DNA from: a virus
Taxonomy: Duplodnaviria; Heunggongvirae; Uroviricota; Caudoviricetes
Length of the DNA stretch: 19,703 bases
IMG/VR virus record: IMGVR_UViG_2778261252_000009
Location: 1-19,703 of that record
Direction: 5' to 3' (one strand)
Below the pieces are notes generated by a model. It was not told where the DNA came from. It did no database searches and saw only the letters and a program-made list of their open reading frames with translations. Shown in pieces: positions 1-16,636 of the stretch (position 1 is its first letter; every line of letters starts with the position of its first letter). A program made the position numbers and the translations under genes.

Positions 1-1053
1 TTACGGGGTAATGCCAACCGCTGCCGCCACTTTGTCGCCACTTGGCAGCGTTGCCAGAGGATTGAAACGGAGCGCCGTTTCCAGATGATCTGGTGCCAGA
101 TGTGCGTAACGCATAGTCATTTTTATATCGTGGTGTCCGAGAATTTTTTGTAAGGCGAGAATGTTTCCACCCGACATCATGAAGTGCGCCGCAAATGTAT
201 GGCGCAGAACGTGTGTGAGTTGACCGCGAGGGAGCACGATAGACGTTTTTTCCATCACGGATAAAAATTGAAAATAGCAGTCTGTAAAGAAATTGAACCC
301 ATCAAGCGCCATGATCTCTTCGTAAAGCTCTTTACTGATAGGGATGCTTCTGTTTTTCTTCCCCTTCGTTCTGACAAAGGTAATTCGGTATTTGGTCACC
401 TGTGAGCGGGTAAGATTTACGGCTTCACGCCAGCGTGCGCCTGTGCTTAAGCATATCTTAACTACCAGTGCCAGAATTGGGTCCTGACGTTTGCAATCAG
501 CCAGCAATTCAACAATCTGCTCATGGGTAAGCCATGCCATCTCTTTTTCTGCGATGGTGAATTTTCGCATGTTCTCCAGTGGGTTCGGATACGACCATTC
601 GCCCAGACGGGATAGTTCGCTAAAAACACTACTTAGATAGCTTTGCTCCAGGTTAATGGTGACCGGGCTTGCTCCTTTCTTCCATTTCTCGCTGAAGTAG
701 ATCTCGCCTGTCAGGCGTTTATCTCGATAGTGGGCAAACATTTTAGAGGTGAGATCGGTTGCAAGAGGATTGCCCAGAGCGTCAACCATCAACAGCAATT
801 TGTCATAGACATGCTGCCCAGCTGTCAGAGATTTACCATGTAGTTTGAACCATAGCTCAACCACGTCTTTCAGTGTTCGACGATCCACTGATTCACCCAG
901 CCAGGGCTTTGCTTCGGTTTCTTCCATCGTGTGGCGCTCAAAAGCCAGAGCTTCGCCTTTGGTGGCGAATTGTTTACGCACCCGACGCCCACTACGTCCG
1001 GCGGGGTAACATTCGCAAAGCCATTTTCCTGTGGTGAGTTTTCGTACTGCCAT
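1..1053 (-). CDS. int: Tyrosine integrase, P2/186 family
   Basis: 350-aa ORF with ATG at 1051-1053. Contains LSTGARWREA, a catalytic Arg box, and a C-terminal HxxR...Y region (LRHTFAAHFM...GH...MTMRYAHL) typical of P2-like integrases. Confidence 0.9.
   Translation of the reverse strand: MAVRKLTTGKWLCECYPAGRSGRRVRKQFATKGEALAFERHTMEETEAKPWLGESVDRRTLKDVVELWFKLHGKSLTAGQHVYDKLLLMVDALGNPLATDLTSKMFAHYRDKRLTGEIYFSEKWKKGASPVTINLEQSYLSSVFSELSRLGEWSYPNPLENMRKFTIAEKEMAWLTHEQIVELLADCKRQDPILALVVKICLSTGARWREAVNLTRSQVTKYRITFVRTKGKKNRSIPISKELYEEIMALDGFNFFTDCYFQFLSVMEKTSIVLPRGQLTHVLRHTFAAHFMMSGGNILALQKILGHHDIKMTMRYAHLAPDHLETALRFNPLATLPSGDKVAAAVGITP
19..40. repeat. Putative attL core (left copy of direct repeat), lying inside the 3' end of int
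   Basis: 21 of 22 positions identical to 16402-16423; flanking bases diverge on both sides. Confidence 0.6.
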
Positions 1054-1078
1054 TAAAAAGCCCTCATGTCAGAGGGCT
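1054..1078 (-). terminator. Putative intrinsic terminator or attenuator hairpin immediately upstream of the int start codon
   Basis: Minus strand reads AGCCCTC-TGACAT-GAGGGCT-TTTTTA-ATG: 7-bp stem, 6-nt loop, T-run. The GAGGG that would serve as the int Shine-Dalgarno lies in the 3' stem arm. Confidence 0.45.
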
Positions 1079-1126
1079 AAATTTAACTGTATGTTTGACC
1101 AGTGGTCAATGTATGTAAATATTAAA

Positions 1127-2896
1127 TCATACGTCAGGGGTAATCCAGTCGACTAAAGCCTCAATACTTTCGAAATCTGCACAGATATCTGAAAGAGGTT
1201 GTGTATCTGCTTTTGTTTTGAAATCAGCCCATACTGATTCATTTTTTTCTGTAAGACCCAAATGGTTTTCTATCGAACCATTTAGCCAAATCCAAATATT
1301 TGCATTTCTCAGTTTTGCGGCTAATGATGACAAAAATTCTCTGGCGCCGGGCTTTTGAGACATAATAGCAAATGCTTCAGCTGCGGTAGTGTTATTACCC
1401 TTTGTAGGCAAACCGGATCCATCGAGAGTGCATTCTCCATTAGCATGCATACTTCTCAAGATTTCTTTTAGTCGTAAAATATCCTCGTCATTATGTTCTA
1501 AGAAGTTGTTCCTTATTGCACCGCGGAACGCAAAATCTAAATCAACAATTGCTTTTGTAGGTATATCCATTGAATTTAGAATTTGCATCGTTTTAGATAT
1601 ACTTTCAACGGACCCTGTTTCAATTAGTGCTATTTGCATCTGACCTAATGTTTTATTTTTAACTTTGTTAAAAATAAATGGGAGCAGAGTAGTCTCTGTT
1701 TTACCTTCTGTTAGTATTACATTGTTAGCAAACAAAACTTTTGAAGACTGTGTTAATGAAAATAAATGGGTTGCTTGTGCTGGTCGTTGTTCGATTACTT
1801 TATTGACTGCTTCTTTTAATGTTAATCTGCAATGAGTGCCACGCTGACTGTTTTTTCTGATTAACACAGTGTCTTTTGCTAAGTCAGAGGTAATCATTTG
1901 AGATGAATGGGTAGAGAAAATTATTTGATATCCATGATGAGATAGTGTTTTTAGAGATTCTCTAATTTGTTCGATAGCAAATGGGTGAAGATATAACTCA
2001 GGTTCATCTATTAACAGTAGAGTAGTTGTTTTAATATCATCACCGTTGGTTATATCAGCTAAATGTCTTATTAGAGCCATCTGAATCGAACGCTGTGTGC
2101 CATGACCATAAGAAGAACAGTCACGAGCAATGCCGGGAAATGAATCTTCATATACTTTCACAGTCCCTGATTTAAATATATCCTTGAAGTCAGGGAGTTC
2201 GAAGTGTAGTTTTAAACTTATCCCAGGGAAGAAATCAGCAACTTTACTACTTATTGAATCATCAATATCATTGAGGTCCGATATTCGTTTATTACCGGTT
2301 GCAGTCATTCTTCTATTAACGGCATTTAAATGGCTTAGTATCCTTTGAGTGTGCTTCTCTTCTATTTTGCAACTCAATTCTGCCAGCAACTTACCTATTG
2401 TAGTTCCTGTTTTTGATTTTGAAGAATCATCCGCTGCATTTTCCATTGCACCTATACGTATTGGGTCTGGAAATAAAGCTTTTATCGCATTCTCAATACC
2501 CGTTGGTGATGTCCTGAATTCGTTATTTTCTGGGTTTTTAATTAATAATCTGACGTCTTTTGCACTTTGAGCACCAACAGGCTGTTGACGCTTAAATATC
2601 AATACCCCATCAATAATGTAGGGTGAAATTCTAGTTCTGTTTTCTTCTGTTAAAGCTGACAAAATATCTTCAGTAATACCCTTAACTGTACCTATAACTT
2701 CTATAGGGTTATCTGGATTAGTATAATCATCAGAGGACAAAAGTTTTTTCTTAAAAAGCCATTCAATAGCATTTAAAATCGTTGACTTACCAGCATTGTT
2801 GTAACCGATTAAAGGCGTGAATGAAGAAAAATTGATATCAATATCTTTGCAAGATCTAAAGTTTTTTATAGAAATCTTTGAAAGATGATGATTCAT
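1127..2896 (-). CDS. OLD-family ATP-dependent nuclease (N-terminal ABC-type ATPase, C-terminal Toprim); candidate anti-phage defense protein
   Basis: 589 aa. Walker A GYNNAGKST near N-terminus, Walker B LLLIDEPELYLHP, H-loop FSTHS. Toprim-like VILTEGKTE and DxD motif AIVDLDFA. Strong RBS GGAGGAG 6 nt upstream of ATG. Visibly AT-rich relative to neighbours. Confidence 0.8.
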   Translation of the reverse strand: MNHHLSKISIKNFRSCKDIDINFSSFTPLIGYNNAGKSTILNAIEWLFKKKLLSSDDYTNPDNPIEVIGTVKGITEDILSALTEENRTRISPYIIDGVLIFKRQQPVGAQSAKDVRLLIKNPENNEFRTSPTGIENAIKALFPDPIRIGAMENAADDSSKSKTGTTIGKLLAELSCKIEEKHTQRILSHLNAVNRRMTATGNKRISDLNDIDDSISSKVADFFPGISLKLHFELPDFKDIFKSGTVKVYEDSFPGIARDCSSYGHGTQRSIQMALIRHLADITNGDDIKTTTLLLIDEPELYLHPFAIEQIRESLKTLSHHGYQIIFSTHSSQMITSDLAKDTVLIRKNSQRGTHCRLTLKEAVNKVIEQRPAQATHLFSLTQSSKVLFANNVILTEGKTETTLLPFIFNKVKNKTLGQMQIALIETGSVESISKTMQILNSMDIPTKAIVDLDFAFRGAIRNNFLEHNDEDILRLKEILRSMHANGECTLDGSGLPTKGNNTTAAEAFAIMSQKPGAREFLSSLAAKLRNANIWIWLNGSIENHLGLTEKNESVWADFKTKADTQPLSDICADFESIEALVDWITPDV

Positions 2897-2939
2897 TTTA
2901 GACTCCTCCAGTAAGTATTTAAAAGTAATGTCTGCAATG

Positions 2940-3878
2940 TTATTGTATTGTTAAGATAATGCTGGCTATAATTTGAATATCCTCAATGGAACACTCAAAA
3001 TCCTTACTCCCACCAGAAACAAGAATTTTGTTCTTAGGTAAGCGAGTTAACTCTTTTAAAGATAACTCATTGTCAATTCCTACTAACCATTTTCCATCTC
3101 TAATTAGGTGAAATTCTTTATCACATATGACATGTTTTTCTCCATTGCTTACAAACATCAAGCTGCTAGTTTCTTGCTTCGGAAGTAGACACCGATCCAT
3201 GGATAAAAAACCTGACTCGACAAGCACGCCATTGACCAAATTGAACTTATTTAAAATTACAGTGTTTTCTTCTTGTGAACTATTTGGTGTTTCGATTCCT
3301 GTAACTAGCCAGGCGAGATCCGCTTTGGTTTCTAATGCGCATTTAATCACCCAATCCGCAGGGAAAGAATCTCGCATGTATCGTGTGGCTAATGTGCTTT
3401 TTGAAATACCAAGGTGGTCGGCTAAGGCTTGGCGGGTTTTAAACCCGTAAGCATTAACAATCCTCTCTATCGTGGCTTTTCCTCCGTTAGTAAGCTCAAT
3501 GTGATTCTCAATGCGGCGCTTAAAGGATGATTGATGAGCGTTGCTGTTAAACCCCTCATGTGGGACTGTTTCATCATGTTGTTCCACATAAGGGGGGAAA
3601 CTTTCTTCTGCATTGTTAGAACCAAAGGCCAGCCATTCTAGGGATGCGCCAGTTTCCATTGAACATATAACAACCCAATCAGCAGGGAAGGTATCGCGTG
3701 CATATCTATTAGCCATTGTGCTTTGTGAAATACCAAGATGCTTACAGAAGGCTTGGCGTGATTTGAAACCATAGGCCTTGAGTATCCTCTCAATGACTTT
3801 TTGCCCTCCACGATTCTGCATGACCATAGCTTTCAGACTATCTTCAATATGGCGAAATGTGATTTTTTGAGTTGACAT
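2940..3878 (-). CDS. cI: CI-like prophage repressor with tandemly duplicated N-terminal HTH domain
   Basis: 312 aa. Two copies of a ~62-aa motif (residues 25-86 and 133-194, IERI..AYGFK.RQA...HLGIS.ST.A.RY.RD.FPADWV..C..ET.A.L.WL..G), about 39 of 62 identical by hand alignment. Sits divergent from apl-cII in the 186 cI position. Confidence 0.7.
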   Translation of the reverse strand: MSTQKITFRHIEDSLKAMVMQNRGGQKVIERILKAYGFKSRQAFCKHLGISQSTMANRYARDTFPADWVVICSMETGASLEWLAFGSNNAEESFPPYVEQHDETVPHEGFNSNAHQSSFKRRIENHIELTNGGKATIERIVNAYGFKTRQALADHLGISKSTLATRYMRDSFPADWVIKCALETKADLAWLVTGIETPNSSQEENTVILNKFNLVNGVLVESGFLSMDRCLLPKQETSSLMFVSNGEKHVICDKEFHLIRDGKWLVGIDNELSLKELTRLPKNKILVSGGSKDFECSIEDIQIIASIILTIQ

Positions 3879-3965
3879 ATTCTTTATGTGAACCTATTCT
3901 CCGTTTTGTGATGTTTTGTCACGATTAATACCGGCTCACCACAAGCCAATAGGAGATGTTGCATC

Positions 3966-4187
3966 ATGACCCCTAACATTTCAATAACTCTGAATACGCC
4001 ACACGTCACAATTGAGCGTTATAGCGAACTTACTGGTCTTTCTATCGACACCATCAACGATATGCTGGCAGATGGTCGTATCCCTCGCCATCGCCTTCGG
4101 AAAGACAAGAAAAGAGAAAAGGTAATGATCAACCTTGCTGCTCTTACCGTTGATGCACTTACTGATTGCAATGTTGTATTCAACTAG
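3966..4187 (+). CDS. apl: Apl/Cox-like small HTH excisionase and regulator
   Basis: 73-aa ORF, first gene rightward of the switch region, RBS AGGAGA upstream; position equivalent to 186 apl. Confidence 0.55.
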
Positions 4188-4219
4188 TTCCATTTTGGGA
4201 TGTATCAGGAGTGTCGACT

Positions 4220-4729
4220 ATGTTTGATTACCAAGTTTCCAAACATCCACATTTTGATGAAGCCTGTCGTGCATTTGCATTGCGCCACAACTTGGTGCAA
4301 CTGGCAGAACGTGCAGGTATGAATGTGCAGATTCTGCGGAACAAGCTGAATCCAGCTCAACCTCATTTATTAACCGCACCAGAAATCTGGCTGCTTACCG
4401 ATCTGACTGAAGATTCAACGTTGGTAGATGGTTTTCTGGCACAGATTCACTGCCTGCCATGCGTACCAATTAATGAGGTGGCAAAAGAGAAACTGCCACA
4501 TTACGTCATGAGTGCAACCGCAGAGATCGGGCGTGTTGCTGCAGGTGCGGTATCTGGCGATGTAAAAACCAGTGCAGGTCGTCGTGATGCTATCAGCAGC
4601 ATTAACTCTGTAACACGACTGATGGCGTTGGCTGCTGTTTCATTGCAGGCCCGTTTACAGGCTAACCCTGCGATGGCGAGTGCAGTTGATACCGTGACTG
4701 GCCTCGGTGCTTCATTCGGTTTGCTGTGA
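4220..4729 (+). CDS. cII: CII-like transcriptional activator, phage 186 type
   Basis: 169 aa from ATG at 4220 with RBS AGGAGTG. N-terminus [19 protein letters not shown] matches my recollection of 186 CII, which is also 169 aa. Confidence 0.8.
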
Positions 4730-4736
4730 GGTGCTT

Positions 4737-5033
4737 ATGCTGACGAAAGAACCATCATTTGCATCGCTGCTGGTAAAACAAAGCCCGGCAATGCACTACG
4801 GTCACGGCTGGATCACAGGTGAGGATGGAAAACGCTGGCATCCATGTCATTCACAAGATGAATTGCTGTCTGAATTGACCACGAGGAAACGGAGAAAGTC
4901 CAAATGTATGCGGCAGAAAGTGAAGTGGTTTATCAGTTTCGTTACAGAGGGGAGAGTTATTCAGTACCTGAAGATGATTTGCTCTGTTGCTATCCGTCAT
5001 TGTCGGGCGATGGCAGTTACTTTTTCGCGTTAA
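4737..5033 (+). CDS. Hypothetical early protein, translationally coupled to cII
   Basis: ATG at 4737 with GAGG 5 nt upstream, 8 nt after the cII stop. Overlaps the next ORF by ~130 nt in another frame, so the true 3' end is uncertain. Confidence 0.4.
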   Translation: MLTKEPSFASLLVKQSPAMHYGHGWITGEDGKRWHPCHSQDELLSELTTRKRRKSKCMRQKVKWFISFVTEGRVIQYLKMICSVAIRHCRAMAVTFSR

Positions 5034-5128
5034 AGGATGGGACGTTTTTACGGGGAGAGCAGGTTAAAGAGACGATACGAAAAAATGTATCTCCTCTTGA
5101 GCGTTACCGTAAGAACAAAGAACGATAG
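4904..5128 (+). CDS. Hypothetical early protein
   Basis: 74-aa ORF with good RBS GGAGAAAG 5 nt upstream of ATG. Confidence 0.5.
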   Translation: MYAAESEVVYQFRYRGESYSVPEDDLLCCYPSLSGDGSYFFALKDGTFLRGEQVKETIRKNVSPLERYRKNKER

Positions 5129-5150
5129 CTGCGTTTGGGGGATATGAAGT

Positions 5151-5492
5151 ATGGCAATTAATGGCGCTGCAGCAACTGTTCCATTAAGCCCCGGTGAACG
5201 CCTGAATGGACTTAATCACATTGCGGAGTTAAGGGCGAAAGTTTTTGGCCTGAATATTGAGTCAGAGCTTGAGCGGTTTATTAAAGATATGCGTGATCCA
5301 CGGGATATCAATAATGAACAAAATAAACGGGCACTGGCTGCCATATTCTTTATGGCAAAAATTCCAGCTGAACGTCATAGCATCAGCATTAATGAGCTGA
5401 CCACTGACGAAAAGCGGGAGCTGATTAAAGCAATGAATCATTTTCGTGCAGTGGTGAGCTTATTTCCCAGACGGCTAACCATGCCGAATTAA
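5151..5492 (+). CDS. Hypothetical early-region protein
   Basis: 113-aa ORF, RBS GGGGGA upstream, same strand as the early operon. Confidence 0.5.
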   Translation: MAINGAAATVPLSPGERLNGLNHIAELRAKVFGLNIESELERFIKDMRDPRDINNEQNKRALAAIFFMAKIPAERHSISINELTTDEKRELIKAMNHFRAVVSLFPRRLTMPN

Positions 5493-5559
5493 CCAACTAA
5501 TGAAATTAATGGCGTAAACCCGCCGGGCATCCCTTTATCTAAATTCAGGAGAATTGATT

Positions 5560-5793
5560 ATGCGTAATATTGAAACCCTCACGACTAAAACCGGACCGGA
5601 TGACGCAGGGCTTAATATTTTACTGACAGAGGCTCGTCTGGAAGAACGCCGGGCAAGGGCTGAAGCAATGGCAGCTCGCCTTGATAGCCTGGCGTGTCAT
5701 ATCTCATCCCGTCAGCTAAACCACGTGGAAGCGGCAGAACTGCTGCGTGTGACTGCTGAAGCAATCCAGAACGAAGCGCAGGAGATCCACTAA
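5560..5793 (+). CDS. Hypothetical early-region protein
   Basis: ATG at 5560 with AGGAGA 7 nt upstream; its stop TAA overlaps the next ATG (TAATG). Confidence 0.5.
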   Translation: MRNIETLTTKTGPDDAGLNILLTEARLEERRARAEAMAARLDSLACHISSRQLNHVEAAELLRVTAEAIQNEAQEIH

Positions 5794-6020
5794 TGGCTGA
5801 TGCAATGGATCTCGTACAGCAGCGCGTTGAAGAAGAACGCCAGCGCCATATCCGTGCTGCCCGTGCCAAAACGCCGGGCGTGTCCCGCGTGCTTTGCGTT
5901 GAGTGTGAAGCGCCAATTCCGCCAGCACGCCGCCGTGCCATTCCGGGTGTGCAGCTTTGCATTACCTGTCAGGAAATCGCAGAGCTGAAAAGCAAACATT
6001 ACAACGGGGGTGCTGTATGA
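5793..6020 (+). CDS. TraR/DksA-type C4 zinc-finger protein
   Basis: 75 aa with CVECEAPIP...CITCQ (CxxC-N17-CxxC); P2-like phages carry such a gene upstream of A. Confidence 0.7.
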   Translation: MADAMDLVQQRVEEERQRHIRAARAKTPGVSRVLCVECEAPIPPARRRAIPGVQLCITCQEIAELKSKHYNGGAV

Positions 6021-6874
6021 GCACCATCCTGAAATGGGCGGGAAATAAAACCGCCGTAATGTCCGAACTGAAAAAACATCTTCCTGCTGGTCCGCGACTA
6101 GTTGAACCTTTCGCGGGTTCCTGTGCTGTGATGATGGAGACGGATTATCCCTGCTATCTGGTTGCGGATATTAATCCTGATTTAATCAACCTCTATAAAA
6201 AGGTTGCCGCTGATTGTGAATCGTTTATATCTCGCGCCAAAGTTTTATTTGAGATCGCAAACAGGGAGGTGGCTTATTACAACATAAGGCAGGAGTTTAA
6301 TTACTCAACTGAAATTACTGATTTCATGAAAGCGGTATATTTCCTGTATCTCAATCGTCACGGTTACCGTGGGTTATGTCGCTATAACAAGAGCGGGCAT
6401 TTCAACATTCCCTACGGTAATTATAAAAATCCGTATTTCCCTGAAAAAGAAATTCGCGCTTTTGCAGAAAAAGCCCAGCGAGCAACGTTTATCTGCGCCA
6501 GCTTTGATGAAACGCTGGCGATGTTGAAGGCGGGGGATGTGGTGTATTGCGATCCGCCTTATGACGGTACGTTTTCCGGCTATCACGCTGACGGCTTTAC
6601 TGAAGATGACCAGTATCACCTGGCATCCGTTCTTGAACATCGGTCATCAGAAGGACATCCGGTCATTGTTTCTAACAGTGACACATCCCTGATCCGTTCG
6701 CTGTATCGCAATTTTACTCACCACTATATCAAGGTAAAACGCAGCATCGGCGCAGCAGCTGGTGAGAGTAAATCAGCAACAGAAATCATTGCTGTTTCCG
6801 GGCCGCGCTGCTGGGTGGGATTTGATTATTCGCGTGGCGTGGATAGTTCTGCCGTGTACGGAGTACGTGCATGA
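6017..6874 (+). CDS. dam: DNA adenine methyltransferase, Dam family, with no adjacent restriction gene
   Basis: 285 aa. N-terminal LKWAGNK and FAGS motifs (AdoMet binding), catalytic DPPY ([10 protein letters not shown]), [15 protein letters not shown] similar to E. coli Dam. Start overlaps upstream stop (ATGA) and stop overlaps A start (ATGA). Confidence 0.9.
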
Positions 6875-9285
6875 GCCATGCCGATATGAGCAACTGCTGC
6901 GGCTTTAACGAGGCTGCCGCATCGTTCTCATGGAACAGCCCGAAAAAGGCCATTAACCCTTATCTGGACCCGGCGGAAGTTGCGCCGGTTTCTGCGCTTT
7001 CAAACCTGATCACTCTGTACGCTGCCGATAACGAGCAGGAACAACTGCGCCGCGAGGCACTGAGTGATCAGGTCTGGGAGCGTTATTTCTTTAATGAATC
7101 CCGTGATCCTGTCCAACGCGAAATAGAGCAGGATAAGCTCATTAGCCGGGCAAAGTTGGCGCATGAGCAGCAGCGTTTTAACCCGGACATGGTCATTCTG
7201 GCAGACGTCAGCGCCCAGCCCTCCCATATCAGCAAGCCGCTGATGCAACGTATTGAATACTTCAGCAGCCTGGGCAGGCCAAAGGCTTATTCCCGCTATT
7301 TACGTGAGACGATTAAGCCATGTCTGGAACGACTGGAGCATGTACGCGACAGCCAGCTATCTGCATCTTTTCGTTTTATGGCAAGCCATGTAGGGCTGGA
7401 CGGCCTGCTGATTCTGCCTGAAATGAGTCAGGATCAGGTGAAACGCCTGTCTACCCTTGTCGCTGCGCATATGAGCATGTGCCTTGATGCAGCTTGTGGT
7501 GATTTGTATGCCACCGATGACGTTAAGCCAGAAGAAATCCGCAAGACATGGGAAAAGGTGGCAGCGGAAACCCTGCGTCTGGATGTCATCCCGCCTGCGT
7601 TTGAGCAACTCCGTCGGAAAAGAAACCGCCGTAAACCCGTGCCCTATGAACTCATTCCGGGTTCGCTGGCGCGTATGTTGTGCGCCGACTGGTGGTACCG
7701 GAAATTATGGAAAATGCGTTGCGAATGGCGGGAAGAGCAGTTGCGTGCTGTCTGCCTGGTCAGCAAAAAAGCATCTCCCTATGTCAGCTATGAAGCCGTG
7801 ATGCATAAACGTGAGCAGCGCCGCAAGTCACTGGAGTTTTTCCGTTCTCATGAACTGGTGAACGAAGAGGGCGACACGCTGGATATGGAAGACGTGGTAA
7901 ACGCCAGCAGCAGCAACCCGGCGCACCGCCGCAATGAGATGATGGCCTGTGTTAAAGGTCTGGAGCTTATCGCGGAAATGCGCGGTGACTGCGCCGTTTT
8001 CTACACCATTACCTGTCCGTCACGTTTCCATTCCACGCTCAATAACGGCAGACCAAACCCAACCTGGACAAATGCGACGGTAAGACAAAGCAGCGATTAT
8101 CTGGTCGGCATGTTTGCTGCATTTCGTAAGGCGATGCACAAAGCCGGGTTGCGCTGGTATGGCGTGCGGGTGGCTGAGCCGCATCATGACGGTACAGTTC
8201 ACTGGCACCTGTTGTGTTTCATGCGCAAAAAAGACCGCCGCGCCATTACTGCATTGTTGCGTAAGTTTGCCATCCGTGAAGACCGCGAGGAACTGGGTAA
8301 TAACACTGGTCCACGCTTTAAATCTGAGCTGATAAACCCGCGCAAAGGAACGCCGACAAGCTACATCGCGAAATACATCAGTAAGAACATTGACGGGCGT
8401 GGTCTGGCTGGCGAGATCAGCAAGGAAACGGGTAAATCCCTGCGTGATAACGCTGAATACGTTAATGCCTGGGCGTCTCTGCATCGTGTTCAGCAATTCC
8501 GCTTCTTTGGTATTCCGGGACGTCAGGCTTACCGTGAACTTCGCTTGCTGGCTGGTCAGGCGGCAAGGCAACAGGGTGACAAAAAAGCAGGTGCGCCGGT
8601 ACTGGATAACCCGCGTCTTGATGCCATTCTGGCTGCTGCTGATGCTGGTTGTTTTGCCACCTACATCATGAAGCAGGGCGGCGTACTGGTTCCCCGCAAA
8701 TATCACCTCATCAGAACCGCTTATGAAATCAACGAAGAGCCAACCGCCTATGGCGATCACGGTATTCGTATTTATGGCATCTGGTCACCCATTGCAGAGG
8801 GCAAGATCTGCACTCATGCAGTGAAGTGGAAAATGGTTCGTAAGGCCGTTGACGTTCAGGAGGCGGCAGCCGACCAGGGCGCTTGCGCCCCTTGGACTCG
8901 TGGCAATAACTGTCCCCTTGCTGAAAATTTGAACCAACAAGGGAAAGACAAATCAGCTGATGGGGATACCAGAACGGATATCACCCGCATGGATGACAAG
9001 GAGTTGCACGATTACCTGCACAGAATGAGCAAAAAAGAGCGCCGGGAACTGGCAGAAAGATTACGCCTGGTTAAACCGAAACGGCGTAAAGACTACAAAC
9101 AGCGAATTACAGAGTATCAGCGTCAGCAGCTCGTCTATGAGCTGAAGTCCAGAGGATTTGATGGTAGCGAGAAAGAGGTCGATTTACTCCTTCGCGGCGG
9201 CAGTATTCCGTCAGGAGCAGGCCTGCGTATCTTCTATCGGAACCAGCGTTTGCAGGAAGATGATAAGTGGCGGGATCTGTATTAA
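6871..9285 (+). CDS. A: Rolling-circle replication initiation endonuclease, P2 gene A family
   Basis: 804 aa. HUH motif HWH at codons 444-446 (8200-8208) and paired catalytic tyrosines YIAKY at codons 498-502 (8362-8376), as in the phiX174 A / P2 A superfamily. Confidence 0.85.
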
Positions 9286-9377
9286 TTACGCGGGTTAACA
9301 ATTCGTGCTCTTAATAATACCAGGCATATCAGGCTGATGAACGTAAAAAAACGTTTTACATCAGTAAGATTATTATA

Positions 9378-9397
9378 TACTGTAAATATAAACAGTG
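9378..9397 (+). promoter_or_regulatory. LexA (SOS) box upstream of the tum/dinI-like module
   Basis: TACTGTAAATATAAACAGTG matches the CTGT-N8-ACAG consensus exactly (CTGT 9380-9383, ACAG 9392-9395), about 40 bp upstream of the ORF starting at 9438. Confidence 0.65.
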
Positions 9398-9437
9398 GTT
9401 ATGTATACAGTATTGCTTTGGTGTCATAGGAGGAAAG

Positions 9438-9626
9438 ATGCAGGACTATTTTTTGGAGTCTTTGAAGCTCCAGCGCATTGATTTTTTTCTTAAGCTTGTA
9501 GCGGCTAGTGAGTGTAGTGATGAAGAGAAGGGGCTGGCTCTGCAGTGGGTTTCTGAACTGACAGATGAACTCATGGCAAAAATCAGAACCCACGAATACA
9601 ACCGCTCAATGGATGTCATCAGCTGA
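9438..9626 (+). CDS. Small protein downstream of LexA box; possible Tum-like antirepressor component
   Basis: 62-aa ORF with RBS AGGAGG; function inferred from position only. Confidence 0.4.
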   Translation: MQDYFLESLKLQRIDFFLKLVAASECSDEEKGLALQWVSELTDELMAKIRTHEYNRSMDVIS

Positions 9627-9636
9627 GGTGACTTTT

Positions 9637-9870
9637 ATGCGCATTGAAATAATGATCGATAAAGAGCAGAAGATTAGCCAGTCTACACTGGACGCCCTTG
9701 AATCCGAGCTTTACCGCAATCTGCGCCCCCTGTATCCCAAAACGGTAATTCGTATCCGCAAAGGTAGCTCTAACGGTGTGGAACTGACCGGACTGCAACT
9801 GGACGAAGAAAGAAAACAAGTGATGAAAATTATGCAGAAGGTGTGGGAAGACGACAGCTGGCTGCATTAA
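9637..9870 (+). CDS. DinI-family protein
   Basis: 77 aa starting MRIEIMIDKEQ...LDALESELYRNLRPLYP...KIMQKVWEDDSW, resembling E. coli DinI (MRIEVTIAK...). RBS GAGG 8 nt upstream. Confidence 0.7.
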   Translation: MRIEIMIDKEQKISQSTLDALESELYRNLRPLYPKTVIRIRKGSSNGVELTGLQLDEERKQVMKIMQKVWEDDSWLH

Positions 9871-10073
9871 GAAACGTTGCTGGCGTCTGAACTTGCTTCT
9901 GGCGTCAGCAAGGTTGAACAACGAGCTGTGCGAGGCGTTAGCTCTGTGGTGCATGTCTATGCCGCATGAGATCGCATGATCGTTTGAGGATTGTTTTTGC
10001 TAAGGCCTGCCAGAACTGGCGGGCTTTTGCGTAGATCATGCAGGTGCATGAAAACCACTACATAAAGCGGGCA

Positions 10074-10099
10074 GGCGTGGCGGGGATACGAGCGCGCAC
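10074..10099. other. cos-like remnant (possible degenerate cohesive-end site)
   Basis: GGCGTGGCGGGGA matches the first 13 nt of the 186/P2 19-nt cohesive end as I recall it (GGCG[T/A]GGCGGGGAAAGCA[T/C]); the remaining 6 nt differ. Lies in a GC-rich non-coding stretch between the dinI-like gene and the cargo gene. Confidence 0.4.
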
Positions 10100-10218
10100 T
10101 TAAGGATAAATTGAAGTTGATTTAATTTTTCGACATGGATAATCTTAACTACGTATGATTATTGATAAAAAATAAACATAAAAAATTGTAGCGGATCTTA
10201 AAACTTATTAGGATTAGT

Positions 10219-11280
10219 ATGCTTAAAACAAATAAGGTATTTATTGACACACAAACGTACGTAAAGGCTGGTCTTCATTTTGAGGGGGTAGCATTTAAAG
10301 CTTTCCATGAATTATGTGCGAAAGGTGATTTAGTCTTAATTACAACTACAGTTGTAGAGAGAGAAGTAAAAGGTAAAATAGAGGAATCAATAAAGGATGC
10401 TCTGCAGGCTATAAACACAGTACAAAGAAAAGCTAGGCTTTTGAATAGTATTGATAATGGACCGCTCCATGGTTTTTTTCAGCAATTTAACGAACATGAA
10501 ATTCACGAAGCAGCACAAAAAGTTTTTGATGATTTTTTGAAAGGATGTCACGCCAAATTAGCTACAATAGAAGTGATAGATCTTAATGAGGTTTTAGATA
10601 AATACTTTGGCAAAGAACCACCATTTGGGCAAAATAAGAAAAAAAGTGAGTTTCCTGATGCAATCACTTTAGCTGCGGTAGAGCGATTTGTTAATGATGA
10701 AGATGTGTATATCATTTCTGAGGATAGTGACTTAAAAAATTATTGTGATGGTAAAAACAATCTTCATCAAATTGATTCACTTGATAAGTTTCTAGGTGAA
10801 TACAATACGCATACAAACGAATTAAGTAATAAATTGATGCAGTTTATCGAAAGCAAACGTGAAGACATAAGAGCGGACGTAATTGCCCAACTCAATGATG
10901 CCGATGGATATAACGTTTCAACTTGGGAAGACGCTGAATTGGATTCATTTGAAGTCGTCAATATTGATGACTTTGAACCATCAATAATTAAGATTAGCAA
11001 TAATTATTGTCTAGCGACCTTCTCTGTTTCTGTAGATTTTGAAGTTACTGTTTCTGGTCCAGACTTTAATAATGGGTATTGGGATAGCGAAGATAAAGTA
11101 ATGATTCCAATGGAGACAACCACACGAACTGAAGTTCAAGAGATTAGTTTCGATGTTGAAATTGAAGTTATGTATGAAATCGAGGATGGTGAATTAACAG
11201 ATATCGCATTTGATGTGAATATTGATAAGTTATCCCGAGGGATTGAGTTCTCTATTGAAGAAAATAATTTTGAATATTAA
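10219..11280 (+). CDS. Cargo protein with PIN-like N-terminal domain and acidic beta-rich C-terminal domain; candidate anti-phage or abortive-infection effector
   Basis: 353 aa. N-terminus KVFIDTQTY (Asp in first strand), later TLAAVERFVNDEDVYIISEDSDL resembling distal PIN acidic motifs. C-terminal half very D/E rich. Visibly AT-rich, flanked by an AT-rich upstream region and a hairpin terminator. Confidence 0.55.
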   Translation: MLKTNKVFIDTQTYVKAGLHFEGVAFKAFHELCAKGDLVLITTTVVEREVKGKIEESIKDALQAINTVQRKARLLNSIDNGPLHGFFQQFNEHEIHEAAQKVFDDFLKGCHAKLATIEVIDLNEVLDKYFGKEPPFGQNKKKSEFPDAITLAAVERFVNDEDVYIISEDSDLKNYCDGKNNLHQIDSLDKFLGEYNTHTNELSNKLMQFIESKREDIRADVIAQLNDADGYNVSTWEDAELDSFEVVNIDDFEPSIIKISNNYCLATFSVSVDFEVTVSGPDFNNGYWDSEDKVMIPMETTTRTEVQEISFDVEIEVMYEIEDGELTDIAFDVNIDKLSRGIEFSIEENNFEY

Positions 11281-11289
11281 TTCGTTCAT

Positions 11290-11320
11290 AACGGCATCAT
11301 TGTGATGCCGTTGGGTTTTA
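11290..11320 (+). terminator. Hairpin terminator between the convergent cargo gene and Q
   Basis: AACGGCATCA-TTG-TGATGCCGTT (10-bp perfect stem, 3-nt loop) followed by GGGTTTTA. Confidence 0.6.
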
Positions 11321-12343
11321 TAATGTATATATTTCAAAATTTATAATTTCATGACCAAGCCATCTGTTTATTTCCATGAATCTTTTTTGAAGTGGTAATA
11401 GTTCATTTCTTACGAAGACGCAGCTCGCCTTCTCCACATCACCAAAACCCCCAACATTATTCGGCAAAATTCCCATCATCTGAGGCGGTACGCGGTGTGC
11501 CGCCATCATGTCATCACGGCTGACGTTCTTGATGTTCAGAAATTCATCCTTCGCCGCGACTTCTGACAACGGGATGATTTGAAGCCCGTCCTTTTTGCCG
11601 TTAGGCGAGTACATAAACAGGTTGCGGAAGTTGCCAGGGCCTTTGGCGCTTTTCATCGCATTGCGGAGGTTGTTCACATCCTCCTGGTTCTGCGCGGCAT
11701 CGGTCATGTACATGATGAAGCCTGCATGGCTGCCGTTAATGTAATACTTCCGGCGGAACAGCGTGGCGGACTCGTTGAGCAGGGCTGACGGAATGGCAGA
11801 AAGATAACCTGGTAGGCCGTAGATCTCCTGGTTGATGTCAGGTTCCATCAGATGAAAAATGCTGCCTTTCGTGAACTGATACGGCTGGGTTGTCATACCG
11901 TATTGCACAAACCAGTAGGTATCCAGATCTAACCCGCGTCGGGTGTATTTTGCCAGAGCAGGCTCAAGGGCGATAACTTCACCGAAGCGGTTCGTGCGTT
12001 TCTCCAGGTAGGCGTTACCAAATACCAGATAGTCCTGCACAAAACGTGAAAAAGCCTGCTGGCTGAGCAGCGGGTGAGGGATGTAGGTACTGGTCAGAAT
12101 GTTGCATTTCACCGCAATTGGTGAGCTGTGATGCACGGCGGCGCGGAAGGTTCGTGCCAGTCCGTCAAAGCTGACGGGCGGCTCATACCAGCGATCCATC
12201 TGTACGCATTCCACATAGTCCAGCAGTTCACGGCGGTCCAGAACAGGAACGGGATCGCCAAAGCTGAATGCTTCGGCTGAAGTTTGGCTTTTATGCTTGA
12301 GCTGATTCGTCGCCGCAGCGCGGTTTTTCTTACTCTTTCCCAT
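11318..12343 (-). CDS. Q: Portal protein, P2 gpQ family
   Basis: About 341 aa (P2 Q is ~344 aa by my recollection); ATG at 12341-12343 overlaps the stop of the upstream terminase fragment; gene order P then Q as in P2. Confidence 0.85.
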   Translation of the reverse strand: MGKSKKNRAAATNQLKHKSQTSAEAFSFGDPVPVLDRRELLDYVECVQMDRWYEPPVSFDGLARTFRAAVHHSSPIAVKCNILTSTYIPHPLLSQQAFSRFVQDYLVFGNAYLEKRTNRFGEVIALEPALAKYTRRGLDLDTYWFVQYGMTTQPYQFTKGSIFHLMEPDINQEIYGLPGYLSAIPSALLNESATLFRRKYYINGSHAGFIMYMTDAAQNQEDVNNLRNAMKSAKGPGNFRNLFMYSPNGKKDGLQIIPLSEVAAKDEFLNIKNVSRDDMMAAHRVPPQMMGILPNNVGGFGDVEKASCVFVRNELLPLQKRFMEINRWLGHEIINFEIYTL

Positions 12344-13323
12344 CAAAAAATCTCCACAATATTGCTGGTATTGGCGGACTCGCCCTGCAGCGGTTCATTA
12401 AACAGTGCGTGCATTGTTGCCCAGGCCAGATCGGCGTGGCTGGCTTCTTCGCTGCGGCTGGCTTCATAGGTCGGGCGGTTGCCACTGGCGGTGGTGGCGC
12501 GACGGATTGCCATAAATGACTGCGCTATGTCGGTGTGTCCGGCGTCAAACTCCAGACGGCGGTGGCTGATAATGTCGTAGGCCTTGAGTACCAGGGCGTT
12601 TTTGACGTTGGGGTTGTAGACAAACTCCCGGACGGCAGGAAAAAACACTTTCACGTTCTCGTAAACCCCGTGACCAACGCCGGTTGAGTCGATGCCGATA
12701 TAGGTCACGTTGTACTGTTCGGTCAGTTTTTTGATGGCGTCAGCCTGGGCGCGAAAGTCCATCCCGCGCCACTGGTGACGCTCAAGAATGCGGAACTTGC
12801 CGCCCGGCACGGCTGGCGGTGCCACCACCACGCATCCGGCACTGTCGCCGTTCTGCGTACCTTTCGCCGGGTCATAACCGATCCACACTTCGCGCCAGCC
12901 AAACGGGCGCAGTGCCAGTGCATGAAAGTCGGTCCAGACTTCCCAGCTGTCCACCATGCACGCCTGCAGCTCGCTGAGCGGGAACACGGACGCGAGATCG
13001 TCCACGAACTCGCACATCAGCAGGTTCTGGTATTCGTCCGGGCTGTACTCCATGCGCAACTGGTCAAGGTCGAACAGGTTGCAGCCGCCGCGCACCGCAT
13101 CTTCCACGGTGACTATCTGGCGGTATTGCCCGTCTGCGCACAGCAGGCCGGGGGCCAGATTGCTGTGGGACAGGTCGATGTCCACCTTATCGGCTTTGTT
13201 GCGCCCACGGTTGAACAGCGCACCGGACCAGAACGGATACGGCAGCAGTAACTCGAACCAGCAACGCGTTGTCCTGGCTGGCTGGTGCACCACTGGCACT
13301 GCTGCGACGCGGGCTTGCTTCAT
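12343..13323 (-). pseudogene. P: Terminase large subunit (P2 gpP family), N-terminally truncated; only distal ATPase region plus nuclease domain retained
   Basis: 326-aa ORF with no Walker A; contains the RNase-H-like nuclease motif VWIGYDPAKG...D. P2 P is ~590 aa by my recollection. The ORF's 5' end overlaps the tape-measure fragment on the opposite strand. Confidence 0.75.
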
Positions 13324-14513
13324 CGGGCAATGCTGCGGGTTTACTTACTGCGCCGTTGTCGTCTTTGCGCCGCACGGCATCACTGACGGGAAATGTCCTG
13401 AAAACTGTAGCAGGTGCGCCGGTTGCACTTTTGCGGTCTGGATTATCCGGTTTACGTGCTGTTGCTGTGATGTTTATGAATCCTCTGGCGGTACTGCGCG
13501 GTGGACTGACCGCCGCAGGCACGGTGTTGCGAGTACTGGCATCTGGTCCACTGGCGATGCTGCGCGTTGCCCTGTATGCCATATCTGGTCTGTTAGGTGC
13601 TCTGCTCAGTCCGATAGGTCTTGTGGTTACTGCACTGGCAGGCGTGGCGCTGGTTGTCTGGAAATACTGGCAACCCATCACCGCATTTCTCGATGGCGTG
13701 GTGGAGGGATTCAAAGCGGCGGCAGGTCCCATCAGTGCTGCATTTGAACCACTTAAGCCTGTGTTTCAGTGGATTGGCGACAAAGTACAGGCGCTGTGGG
13801 GCTGGTTTACTGATCTGCTGACGCCCGTTAAGTCGACCTCTGCCGAACTGCAGAGCGCAGCGGCAATGGGGCGACGATTCGGGGAGGCACTGGCGGAAGG
13901 GCTGAATATGGTTATGCATCCGCTGGACTCCCTGAAATCTGGCGTTTCCTGGTTGCTGGATAAACTCGGCATTGTCAGTAAAGAGGCTGCAAAGGCGAAA
14001 CTGCCGGAAAGCGTGACGCGTCAGCAACCTGCGACGGTGAATGCAGACGGTAAAGTGATGATGCCATCGGGTGGTTTTCCATCATGGGGATATGGCTTTG
14101 CGGGGATGTATGACAGCGGCGGCTATATCCCGCGCGGGCAGTTTGGCATCGTCGGTGAAAACGGGCCGGAAATTGTTAACGGCCCGGCAAACGTGACCAG
14201 CCGGAGAAATACAGCTGCACTGGCTGCCGTTGTTGCCGGAATGATGGGCGTTGCTGCCGCGCCTGCAGAGCTTCCACCGTTGCATCCTTTGGCACTTCCC
14301 GCGAAAGGCGGCGAAGCGATGGTGAGTCGTGCAGCCACTGTGCCGCCCGTTCAACGGATTGAGGCACCGACGCAGATCATCATTCAGACGCAGCCAGGAC
14401 AAAGTGCGCAGGATATTGCGTGGGAGGTGGCCCGCCAGCTTGATGAACGTGAACGCAGGCTGAAGGCAAAAGCCAGGAGTAACTACAGCGATCAGGGGGG
14501 ATACGACGCATGA
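13269..14513 (+). pseudogene. T: Tail tape measure protein (P2 gpT family), C-terminal fragment
   Basis: 414-aa ORF, Ala/Leu/Gly-rich with GENGPEIV near the C-terminus, followed by U and D as in P2 (T is ~815 aa in P2 by my recollection). The 5' boundary of genuine T sequence is uncertain. Confidence 0.7.
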
Positions 14514-14995
14514 TGATGGTGCTGGGATTGTACGTGTTTATGCTGCGCACCGTGCCGTATCAGGAACTGCAGTATCAACGCAGCTGGCGACATGCGGCTA
14601 ACAGCCGGGTAAATCGTCGTCCGTCCACGCAGTTTCTGGGACCGGACAACGACATGCTGACGCTTTCCGGTGTTCTTATGCCGGAGATAACAGGCGGCAG
14701 GCTGTCGTTGCTGGCACTTGAGCAGATGGCAGAACAGGGGAAAGCATGGCCCCTGATTGAAGGCAGCGGCACGATTTACGGCATGTATGTGATTGAGGGA
14801 CTGAATCAGACTAAAACGGAGTTTTTCCGCGACGGTATGCCGCGCCGGATTGAGTTCACCCTGTCGCTCAAACGAGTGGATGAATCCCTGTCCGATATGT
14901 TCGGTGATCTCAGTGCGCAACTGAATAATCTGCAGGAAACGGCAACATCTGCTTTAAGCGATATCAGTAAAACGGTGGGAGGGCTGCTGTCGTGA
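14510..14995 (+). CDS. U: Tail protein, P2 gpU family
   Basis: 161 aa; start overlaps T stop (ATGA); synteny T-U-D. Confidence 0.8.
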   Translation: MMMVLGLYVFMLRTVPYQELQYQRSWRHAANSRVNRRPSTQFLGPDNDMLTLSGVLMPEITGGRLSLLALEQMAEQGKAWPLIEGSGTIYGMYVIEGLNQTKTEFFRDGMPRRIEFTLSLKRVDESLSDMFGDLSAQLNNLQETATSALSDISKTVGGLLS

Positions 14996-16092: not shown

Positions 16093-16182
16093 TTCTTCGC
16101 AATGGAGAACTTTTAAGTTTGCAAAATGGAATAATGCGGTATCATTATTGTGAATTTAGCAAAAATGGGGAGAACTCGAAAA

Positions 16183-16401
16183 ATGATGATTTGCCCACTG
16201 TGTGGAAGTGCCGCCCATACTCGCAGCAGTTTTCAGGTATCTTCATTGACCAAAGAGCGTTACAACCAGTGCCAGAACATTAACTGCAGCCATACTTTTG
16301 TTACCCATGAAACTTTTGTTCGTTCGATTGCAACGCCAAAAGAGTCAAATCCGGTTCAGCCGCATCCAATGAAATCAGGACAGGTGGCGCTCTCTCTTTG
16401 A
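16183..16401 (+). CDS. ogr: Ogr/Delta-type zinc-finger late-gene activator
   Basis: 72 aa from ATG 16183 with CPLCGSAAH...CQNINCSHTF, matching the P2 Ogr pattern CPLC...H...C..NC and its 72-aa length. Confidence 0.8.
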   Translation: MMICPLCGSAAHTRSSFQVSSLTKERYNQCQNINCSHTFVTHETFVRSIATPKESNPVQPHPMKSGQVALSL

Positions 16402-16423
16402 CGCTGCCGCCATTTTGTCGCCA
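16402..16423. repeat. Putative attR core (right copy of direct repeat), immediately after the ogr stop
   Basis: CGCTGCCGCCATTTTGTCGCCA, 21 of 22 identical to 19-40. Confidence 0.6.
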
Positions 16424-16481
16424 TCGTTAAAAAACAGTGTTTCTAACATCATGATTTTAAACAGCTTAAATTTCAGGCAAC

Positions 16482-16524
16482 AAAAAACCCATCAACCTTG
16501 AACCGAAATGGCGGGGTTGATGGG
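16482..16524 (-). terminator. Intrinsic terminator of ybjL
   Basis: CCCATCAACC (16488-16497) pairs with GGTTGATGGG (16515-16524) around a 17-nt loop; on the minus strand the hairpin is followed by TTTTTT. Confidence 0.7.
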
Positions 16525-16636
16525 CTCCACAAAATGGGGACATCAAAGAAAAGCAGTGGCACTAATTAAGACTGATGCCCTGCGGAAAAGTTCTGCGGTT
16601 GTGCAAAAAAATTTCATTTTCAGGGCAACTTCAGTT

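Follow-up and report, generated by a model that had tools for sequence, protein, structure and literature searches.

An intact old-like gene, very probably a Class 1 OLD defense gene, in the int-cI cargo slot of a P2/186-like Escherichia coli prophage

We analyzed a window of 19,703 nucleotides (the whole of the stretch studied, positions 1 to 19,703 of IMG/VR record IMGVR_UViG_2778261252_000009), in which the carrier of the gene described here is a P2/186-like (Peduoviridae) E. coli prophage. Between the repressor gene cI and the integrase gene int, and on the same strand as both, as a sequence-only reading of this DNA had placed it, lies an intact open reading frame (ORF) of 589 amino acids with an ATG start. 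A Shine-Dalgarno sequence, GGAGG, is found at 2905-2909, 8 nt 5' of this ATG. The same reading had called the gene AT-rich, and its GC content of 35.3% is indeed below that of the window (47.7%) and of gene A (52.9%). The Walker A, Walker B, and H-loop motifs and the Toprim glutamate and DxD were all recovered as they had been quoted. The features of the locus and of the encoded protein are as follows.

1..1053, minus strand: int, tyrosine integrase, 350 aa, downstream flank of the slot
1054..1120, minus strand: conserved int leader, part of the backbone by homology to sibling prophages
1121..3327, minus strand: swapped cargo module, bounded where nucleotide homology to sibling prophages is lost
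1127..2896, minus strand: old-like gene for a Class 1 OLD protein, from ORF, profiles, alignment, and predicted structure
1532..1720, minus strand: Toprim catalytic core of the OLD protein, from profile and alignment to P2 Old
1532-1546, minus strand: VDLDF, aa 451-455, with D452-x-D454 (metal A)
1694-1720, minus strand: VILTEGKTE, aa 393-401, with E397 (metal A) and E401 (metal B)
1904-1918, minus strand: H-loop FSTHS, aa 327-331, with H330
1997-2020, minus strand: Walker B LLLIDEPE, aa 293-300, with D297/E298
2780-2806, minus strand: Walker A GYNNAGKST, aa 31-39, with K37, the equivalent of P2 Old K37
2897..2939, minus strand: cI-old spacer, 43 nt, holding the GGAGG
2940..3878, minus strand: cI repressor, 186-type, 312 aa, two Phage_CI_repr HTH domains and Phage_CI_C
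About aa 1-380 of the OLD protein: ABC ATPase domain
About aa 166-222: helical dimerization insert within the ATPase
H304: D-loop residue, C-terminal of Walker B
About aa 388-457: Toprim domain
C-terminal helical region: S541 and E543 (metal B), also K551

The assignment of this protein to the OLD family, first made from its motifs, held up against profiles, sequence comparison, predicted fold, and gene context. Pfam returned AAA_15 (E = 5e-33), AAA_21 (E = 4e-17), and SMC_N, as well as OLD-like_TOPRIM (PF20469; E = 1.5e-16) with profile positions 1-67 of 67 covered; the profile searches did not shift the protein to another ATPase family. The PADLOC Old model matched with 779 bits (E = 9e-235) over model positions 2-578 of 578. 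Judged from these scores, the domain matches are far beyond chance. Aligned to P2 Old, as the reading had proposed, the protein was 37% identical across 99% of the length, and the two were collinear. A phmmer search of the PDB gave the Thermus scotoductus OLD (6P74; E = 2e-13) and GajA (1e-7). The AF2 monomer model (pLDDT 86) matched the folds of 6P74 and GajA over the full length; in the Foldseek ranking 6P74 came first (E = 1.5e-22), and GajA and retron Eco8 came lower. In this model, long helices at aa 166-197 and 206-222 lie within the ATPase.

The gene appears to stand alone. Among all substantial ORFs of the window, Pfam and PADLOC found no UvrD-like helicase, no RVT/reverse transcriptase, and no separate Toprim. 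Rfam at the gathering threshold returned RybB alone in the window and no retron RNA, and ARAGORN found no tRNA there. The remaining window ORFs are 186/P2 core genes, a PIN_12 cargo gene, or host genes. The claim that no helicase or retron partner lies nearby therefore held for the window as searched by Pfam, PADLOC, and Rfam, and a partner that would reassign the gene, such as a Gabija-type helicase, was not found; the gene downstream is int. Class 1 is supported by these negative results for the window, and the single-gene Class 1 reading also agrees with the PADLOC Old score and with 6P74 as the top match by both sequence and fold. We examined the nearest upstream and downstream ORFs at 71 and 74 loci of the wider family, respectively, by Pfam and found heterogeneous neighbors with no recurrent partner. 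Type I restriction-modification (R-M) subunits occurred beside OLD at about 5-7 of these loci, the ResIII/DEAD matches among the neighbors were type I restriction subunits, and the UvrD-type family was absent from the commonest neighbor Pfam families at the 74 loci. The intact gene is very probably a Class 1 OLD anti-phage defense gene.

The catalytic residues known from P2 Old were nearly all retained. In P2 Old, mutation of 11 residues abolished killing of recBC(ts) E. coli, K37A being one such change (PMC7049728). In our alignment, 10 of the 11 were identical in the prophage OLD (equivalents of P2 K37, D299, H306, H332, E398, E402, D453, D455, E543, and K550), and these 10 were invariant across the family alignment of 45 sequences. 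In the numbering used here, K37, D297, H304, and H330 were invariant in the 45 homologues, E298 was at least 90% conserved, and E397/E401/D452/D454 are the equivalents of P2 E398/E402/D453/D455. The eleventh residue, P2 D541, is replaced by S541, the same as S478 of Thermus scotoductus (Ts) OLD. The gene showed purifying selection, with a dN/dS of 0.07 versus the Citrobacter allele. Only the comparisons with this allele, the 53% Klebsiella allele, and P2 gave usable dN/dS values; the others were set aside because dS was saturated. The main OLD clade, which contains the prophage OLD, spans Enterobacteria to Bacteroidota, Campylobacterota, Cyanobacteria, and CPR bacteria at 44-56% identity, and P2 Old is an equidistant outlier, with 35-39% identity to the whole of it.

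Comparison with sibling prophages indicates that the gene is exchangeable cargo. Backbone homology ends at about 1114-1120 and restarts at 3328, and the module between consists of old, the spacer, and the 3' part of cI, which codes for the CI C-terminal domain (aa 185-312). Since the right-hand recombination boundary lies inside cI, cargo swaps also replace the CI C-terminal domain. The OLD gene occupied the int-cI slot in 14 of 5,426 complete E. coli genomes, and elsewhere in E. coli the slot held many alternative cargos (spread sample, 60 of 1,136 genomes). Sibling cargos included PD-Lambda-1, a PADLOC-listed defense cargo, a DUF4747 pair, DUF262+HEPN, DUF4041/SNIPE-associated genes, and others; alternative cargo was found in E. 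coli H15, SA53-3, CAVP766, and EC20-72C-1 and in Klebsiella phages 4LV2017 and KP12. The order cI-OLD-int was also seen in prophages of Citrobacter, Klebsiella, and Serratia, whose OLD alleles showed 84, 77, 63, and 53% identity, and in 13 IMG/VR contigs. Across 30 IMG/VR contigs covering both OLD lineages, the 77-100% lineage was always arranged CI-OLD-Int, and the 37% lineage was arranged Q-Old-(tin)-A in 8 of about 10 contigs. The int-cI position is thus not exceptional: it is a variable cargo slot of P2-like phages, and one that has been described before (PMC9122126, PMC13586616, bioRxiv 10.1101/2024.10.15.618418). A cI-int hotspot has been reported in Vibrio K139-like phages (PMC9122126), 8% of P2 defense systems sit "between integrase and primase" (PMC13586616), and a "third hotspot" has been reported between a tail gene and CI (10.1101/2024.10.15.618418). 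In this literature on P2-like hotspots, we found the slot described and no specific mention of Old in it. It is important to note that the prophage is internally deleted in the source strain, so any benefit would now go to the host and not to a viable phage. In strain D5, the prophage is complete.

The sequence-only reading had also reported a hairpin with a T-run just before int. A terminator-like hairpin is present at 1059-1078 on the minus strand (AGCCCTC-TGACAT-GAGGGCT), followed by T5 and then by the int ATG at 1053, and the folding energy of the 77-nt old-int spacer is -20.8 kcal/mol (z = -4.3). We rejected the idea that it is a terminator imported with old, as it sits in conserved backbone: relatives with other cargo keep the hairpin, with compensatory stem changes, which argues that it is not cargo. 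The int leader also holds the palindrome TTGACCACTGGTCAA at 1095-1109 and a promoter-like TTGACC-N18-TAAATT.

On its other side, the gene lies close to cI. We found no terminator-like site and no significant structure (z = -0.93) in the cI-old spacer (2897..2939), and cI-OLD spacers in homologous prophages are 20-52 nt long, which together make co-transcription with cI a reasonable inference. A candidate internal old promoter in this spacer was rejected, its best match to consensus (9/12) being no better than shuffled expectation. Because the gene follows cI by 43 nt on the same strand across a terminator-free spacer, it likely comes second on the leftward transcript of cI and would then be made in the lysogen.

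Taken together, we consider it probable that this gene is a Class 1 anti-phage moron for superinfection exclusion, carried in the int-cI slot and expressed from the cI operon. By analogy with P2 Old, it likely acts in abortive-infection defense. The protein would form a homodimer through the helical insert of the ABC ATPase, as homology with P2 Old suggests, and would do no damage as long as the cell is uninfected. Once a foreign phage disturbs the cell, hydrolysis of ATP would allow the Toprim domain to cleave by its two-metal mechanism, and the infected cell would be shut down before the invader finishes its cycle. For P2 Old the trigger is inhibition of RecBCD by Gam-type proteins: P2 Old is toxic on RecBCD inhibition (Gam, Gp5.9, or recBC mutants) and excludes lambda, and once activated by Gam or Gp5.9 it carries out ATPase-dependent cleavage of tRNA anticodon stems, cutting after C in CNG motifs (PMC12445682). 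Host tRNA anticodon stems would likewise be the most likely substrate here, with translation arrest as the outcome, as in this closest characterized relative. [quoted passage not shown] We hold a RecBCD-linked trigger with a tRNA substrate only tentatively, at slightly less than even confidence. A more speculative proposal, which we regard as improbable, is that OLD of the main clade is obligatorily tied to the cI operon and even inherited together with the C-terminal (oligomerization) domain of CI, being on in the lysogen and off by pR/pL interference in lytic growth, and that the nuclease might have CI or this domain as a direct restraint or partner. If true, this would put a Class 1 OLD under repressor-linked control, in contrast to P2 old with its stand-alone promoter, and the split of the two OLD lineages between hotspots in P2-like phages would have a functional reason.

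Among the alternatives, the one with most weight keeps the defense function and changes the target. The protein may nick or degrade phage or host DNA and so block replication, with a trigger unrelated to RecBCD, as modeled on Vc OLD (a nickase) and Ts OLD (an exo/endonuclease in vitro). Its two-metal Toprim site is common to the DNA-cleaving Ts OLD and Class 2 enzymes, S541 is as in Ts OLD and not as in P2 Old, P2 Old is a divergent outlier of the clade, and Vc OLD shows that a Class 1 enzyme can nick DNA and function without RecBCD. On the other hand, Vc OLD shares less than 25% identity with P2 Old and Ts OLD, Ts OLD matches the prophage OLD weakly (E 2e-13), and the closest characterized relative is still P2 Old at 37%; during P2 Old toxicity, tRNA is cleaved and the genomic and plasmid DNA of the cells stays intact. 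Overall, we consider DNA-directed defense unlikely.

Two further readings would take the gene out of single-gene defense. It could serve prophage maintenance or lysogeny through post-segregational killing, selection against recBC hosts, or a role linked to the CI C-terminal domain; the gene and the 3' part of cI are inherited as one module, OLD is retained beside cI in heavily decayed prophage remnants, and killing of recBC hosts is the founding phenotype of P2 Old. But the same-flanked slot carries unrelated defense-type cargos, including PD-Lambda-1, distant OLD relatives occur in chromosomal defense contexts (type I R-M operons) with no CI near, and the Serratia OLD allele is paired with an unrelated CI C-terminal domain (27% identity), which leaves maintenance very improbable. 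Secondary matches to the GajA, AriA, and retron Eco8 profiles might suggest a multi-gene system of the Gabija, PARIS, or retron type with an overlooked partner. These PADLOC models (AriA, GajA, and retron ATPase-Toprim) scored 60-120 bits, with a maximum of 119 and with GajA at most 98, versus 779 for Old, and NCBIfam gave sub-threshold matches only, all far under their cut-offs (for the retron Eco8 effector, 62 bits against a cut-off of 250). Further, a single ORF here encodes both ATPase and Toprim, which are split in AriA/AriB, and the window, with int next downstream, held no helicase, reverse transcriptase, or retron noncoding RNA. The noncoding DNA of the cargo module amounts to only 6 nt and 43 nt, too little to accommodate a partner gene, and we regard this reading as the least credible of all, close to negligible.

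The nearest counterpart of the prophage OLD is P2 Old (P13520), the Class 1 archetype, with 586 aa compared with 589 aa here. Both proteins combine an ABC ATPase, a dimerization insert, and a Toprim domain, and both genes are single AT-rich morons of P2-family temperate phages, for which expression in the lysogen is expected. They differ in position: P2 old lies between gpA and gpQ beside cos, with tin and its own promoter, whereas the prophage gene lies between cI and int. The location of P2 old near cos, as given in the earlier reading, is correct; it adjoins cosR, and transcript starts of its own have been mapped. Ts OLD (6P74) has the same three-domain architecture and agrees in metal-A/metal-B geometry, the metal-B Ser included, but it has 528 aa, without part of the C-terminal helical region, and a fold-level identity of ∼17%. 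Vc OLD is, as here, a single-gene Class 1 system beside an integrase on a mobile element, in its case a phage defense element; it acts by abortive infection and needs the Walker A/B and Toprim acidic residues, but its lineage is far removed, with <25% identity to P2 and Ts OLD, and the ICP1 protein Oad1 counteracts it.

The lambda cI-rexA-rexB arrangement offers a parallel in gene order, as an exclusion gene lies directly downstream of the repressor gene and is therefore on in the lysogen. The rexAB proteins and their mechanism are unrelated, and for the prophage OLD the shared transcript with cI is something we infer. As in the described defense hotspots of P2-like phages (gpA-gpQ, Z/fun, and the minor int/cI-proximal one), the flanks of this slot are conserved and its AT-rich cargo, which includes known defense systems, is interchangeable, but here the right boundary falls inside cI. 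The gene, its class, and the hotspot are all of previously described kinds and constitute no new system or category; the PADLOC Old model, a standard defense finder, already recognizes the gene. The Class 1 OLDs with a documented anti-phage phenotype are only P2 Old and Vc OLD, plus E. coli YbjD on induced expression. As a member of the much larger main clade in a tractable E. coli prophage, the prophage OLD would be a convenient Class 1 representative, and it could address whether RecBCD-linked activation and cleavage of the tRNA anticodon arm are general or specific to P2.

A single uninterrupted ORF of 589 codons, the OLD gene, occupies the interval between the integrase gene (int) and the repressor gene cI, with all three genes on one strand. 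The features of the window that bear on it are as follows.

1-1053 (-), tyrosine integrase gene, 3' neighbor of the OLD gene
1054-1120 (-), conserved int leader
1095-1109, perfect palindrome TTGACCACTGGTCAA in the int leader
1127-2896 (-), OLD gene
2905-2909, GGAGG upstream of its ATG start codon
2940-3878 (-), 186-type CI repressor gene, 5' neighbor of the OLD gene
10219-11280 (+), second cargo gene, 34 to 37% GC, in the classic gpA-gpQ (old/tin) hotspot
16479-16557 (-), RybB sRNA gene (Rfam, 105 bits)

The sequence-only reading had described an AT-rich gene between cI and int, and this description held. Each motif it quoted was found where expected: Walker A (GYNNAGKST, amino acids 31 to 39), Walker B (LLLIDEPE, 293 to 300), the H-loop (FSTHS, 327 to 331), the Toprim glutamate (VILTEGKTE, 393 to 401), and DxD (VDLDF, 451 to 455). 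The GC content of the gene was 35.3%; the window as a whole has 47.7%, and replication gene A has 52.9%. Purifying selection on the gene is strong (dN/dS of 0.07 against the Citrobacter allele).

The assignment to an OLD-type ATPase with a Toprim domain was borne out by profile searches. Pfam returned AAA_15 (E = 5e-33), AAA_21 (E = 4e-17), and OLD-like_TOPRIM (E = 1.5e-16, whole profile covered), while all NCBIfam matches fell far under their cutoffs. The PADLOC "Old" model matched over its full length (779 bits; E = 9e-235), compared with at most 119 bits for the AriA, GajA, and retron ATPase-Toprim models. Along 99% of its length, the protein gives a collinear alignment with phage P2 Old (37% identity). 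The top sequence match among solved structures was the Class 1 OLD of Thermus scotoductus (Ts OLD; 6P74), which also ranked first when an AlphaFold2 model built from 45 homologues (mean pLDDT, 86; pTM, 0.79) was searched against the PDB with Foldseek (E = 1.5e-22); GajA and the retron Eco8 effector ranked lower. In the model, long helices (166 to 197 and 206 to 222) are inserted in the ATPase fold, and the Toprim domain is four-stranded. The gene, annotated in RefSeq as "ATP-dependent nuclease," is an uncharacterized Class 1 OLD that standard defense-system profiles detect. A role outside defense is unlikely.

Eleven mutations of P2 Old each abolish killing of recBC(ts) Escherichia coli (Schiltz et al.; PMC7049728): K37A, D299A, H306A, H332A, E398A, E402A, D453A, D455A, D541A, E543A, and K550A. 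The equivalent residues here are, in the same order, K37, D297, H304, H330, E397, E401, D452, D454, S541, E543, and K551. All except S541 are identical to P2 Old and do not vary among the 45 aligned sequences; S541 is the counterpart of Ts OLD S478, whereas P2 Old has D541.

OLD classes are defined by gene context (PMC7049728, PMC10568477), and by these definitions the gene is Class 1, as had been proposed. The other substantial ORFs of the window are one PIN_12 cargo gene, the host gene ybjL, and 186/P2 core genes (Apl-like, CII, Fil, DUF5347, DUF2732, TraR/DksA, Dam, gpA, DinI-like, portal, terminase fragment, tape-measure fragment, gpU, and gpD); neither a UvrD-like helicase of the Gabija type nor a reverse transcriptase was among them. 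RybB was the sole Rfam match in the window at the gathering threshold, and ARAGORN found no tRNA there. A hidden multi-gene system is therefore unlikely, particularly as the cargo module leaves only 6 nt and 43 nt of noncoding DNA and so has no space for a partner gene. Among 74 more distant family members, surveyed for their nearest upstream and downstream ORFs on one-genome-per-species contigs, no recurrent partner was found; the only repeated theme was type I restriction-modification subunits, at about 5 to 7 loci. Main-clade OLD genes of Bacteroidota and some Proteobacteria sit within type I restriction-modification operons (loci L057, L058, L062, L067, L072, L078, L088, and others), with HsdS/HsdM upstream and HsdR directly downstream across gaps of 2 to 11 nt. 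A review states that Class 1 OLDs do not neighbor other defense genes, which these loci contradict.

The window matches E. coli VE-V10-F at 100% identity. The element, a 186-like prophage of the Peduoviridae, has its insertion site between rcdA and rybB/ybjL. Because homology to Klebsiella phage KP12 stops at 16492, attR, the right prophage end, overlaps the 3' end of rybB. In this strain the prophage carries an internal deletion, with its junction at 13238/13239 in the region from 12343 to 14513: terminase gene P is reduced to its C-terminal 326 codons and fused directly to a tape-measure gene fragment, so all capsid and lysis genes and most tail genes are absent. E. coli D5 carries the same prophage complete (99.99% identity up to 13239), and at least 80% of the stretch from 11000 to 19703 recurs in about 50 complete genomes. 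The second cargo gene encodes 353 amino acids with an N-terminal PIN_12 domain; PADLOC gave no match for this protein, a candidate uncharacterized defense or toxin gene.

At the nucleotide level, homology to sibling prophages extends through int and its leader to ∼1114 to 1120, is then lost, and returns at 3328 within cI. The int-cI interval is a cargo slot. In KP12 it holds a 558-amino-acid protein (4962 to 6638 of locus L002) annotated "chromosome segregation ATPase," whose profile match is PD-Lambda-1 (E = 7e-120); in phage 4LV2017, a DUF4747 protein; in E. coli H15 and CAVP766, a DUF4747 protein followed by a 201-amino-acid ORF; and in E. coli SA53-3, a 325-amino-acid hypothetical protein. 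A spread sample drawn from the 1,136 E. coli genomes with the same flanks added DUF262+HEPN, DUF4041/SNIPE-associated, AAA ATPase, DUF2971, and Panacea cargos; the slot seemed empty in at least one genome. This OLD is present in just 14 of 5,426 complete E. coli genomes. The sequence-only reading placed the insertion correctly, and to it must be added that the slot is a known hotspot. A cI-int hotspot is published for Vibrio K139-like P2 relatives (Rousset et al.; PMC9122126), 8% of P2 defense systems lie between integrase and primase (PMC13586616), and the iLund4u preprint describes a third P2 hotspot from a tail gene to CI (10.1101/2024.10.15.618418). Our literature search found no publication naming an OLD in this slot.

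The repressor is chimeric. CI has two tandem Phage_CI_repr HTH domains and Phage_CI_C, at 312 amino acids versus 185 to 198 in relatives. Compared with E. coli and Klebsiella siblings that carry other cargo, its HTH regions share 72 to 85% identity and its C-terminal domain (amino acids 185 to 312; nt 2940 to 3327) only ∼27%; with the C-terminal domains of the OLD-linked CI proteins of Citrobacter and Klebsiella michiganensis, that domain shares 65% and 56%. Nucleotide homology to the Citrobacter element is unbroken from int through old to 3470. The breakpoint of cargo exchange at this slot therefore lies inside cI, so that the repressor C-terminal domain moves with the cargo and is coinherited with OLD; the Serratia OLD allele is without this linkage.

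The cI-OLD-int order recurs with OLD proteins of 84% (Citrobacter freundii), 77% (K. michiganensis), 63% (Serratia), and 53% (another K. michiganensis allele) identity; cI-old spacers in the Citrobacter, K. michiganensis, and Serratia prophages are 20 to 52 nt. The order CI-OLD-Int holds in all 13 IMG/VR contigs that carry a 77 to 100% (main-clade) homologue, and portal-Old-(tin)-gpA in 8 of ∼10 that carry a 37% (P2-type) homologue, where flanks were detected. These two OLD lineages of P2-like phages thus largely occupy different hotspots. A third lineage (35% identity) lies beyond Int, as CI-Int-OLD, in two contigs.

Several other settings were observed. A Pf-like filamentous prophage of Pseudomonas aeruginosa (Zot, DUF2523) carries a 54%-identical OLD (L095, 6001 to 7761; also L096) with integrase directly downstream and small regulator-like genes upstream; although the phage type is unrelated, this is the same place in the lysogeny module. 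In K. michiganensis (L006, L007, L093, and L094), OLD and CI are kept in heavily decayed P2-like remnants with portal, gpU, and gpD fragments and a split integrase, which suggests domestication of the repressor-OLD pair. In L093 and L094 an RVT_1 reverse transcriptase lies ∼3 kb away, in the other hotspot.

Between cI and old, the 43-nt spacer lacks any terminator-like site or significant structure (z = -0.93), and its promoter match is at chance level; old is therefore likely to be cotranscribed with cI. The 77 nt between old and int have strong structure (-20.8 kcal/mol; z = -4.3). The int leader there holds a promoter-like TTGACC-N18-TAAATT (-) and a 7-bp GC-rich terminator-like hairpin followed by T5 touching the int ATG, with no obvious Shine-Dalgarno sequence next to that ATG. 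The hairpin and T-run noted earlier are present, but we rejected them as a feature of the OLD insertion: they lie in conserved backbone, and in relatives with other cargo the stem differs (TGCTCTCC...GGAGGGCA), with compensatory changes, while hairpin and T-run still form. The leader belongs to int regulation, and its features suggest attenuation or translational control of int.

In the best-supported reading, which comes from homology to P2 Old, the protein would be made constitutively as a normally silent ATPase-nuclease until an invading phage activates it, whereupon infection would be aborted. P2 Old is triggered by RecBCD inhibition through lambda Gam or T7 Gp5.9 and kills by ATP-hydrolysis-dependent double cleavage of tRNA anticodon stems, mainly of tRNA-Thr(UGU), leaving DNA intact (PMC12445682). 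Because identity is 37%, trigger and substrate are not confidently transferable, and we hold a P2-Old-like mechanism only tentatively, at somewhat short of an even chance. We rate it above its main rival, a DNA-directed mechanism like that of Vibrio cholerae OLD, which nicks DNA independently of RecBCD and blocks ICP1 replication (PMC12392090); that mechanism we consider rather doubtful here.

The main clade of the family is very widely conserved, and P2 Old is an outlier of it. P2 Old is equidistant (35 to 39% identity) from every sampled main-clade member; in the same alignment, the window protein shares 47 to 56% identity with members of several proteobacterial classes. A tblastn genome scan (best-segment identity, 42 to 54%) reached Bacteroidota, Campylobacterota, Cyanobacteria, and CPR bacteria. 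P2 was the only one of 50,697 deposited phage genomes with a full-length homologue. This outlier status, the partition of OLD lineages by hotspot, and the coinheritance of OLD with the CI C-terminal domain are modestly new, and the E. coli allele would offer a convenient experimental representative of the main OLD clade.
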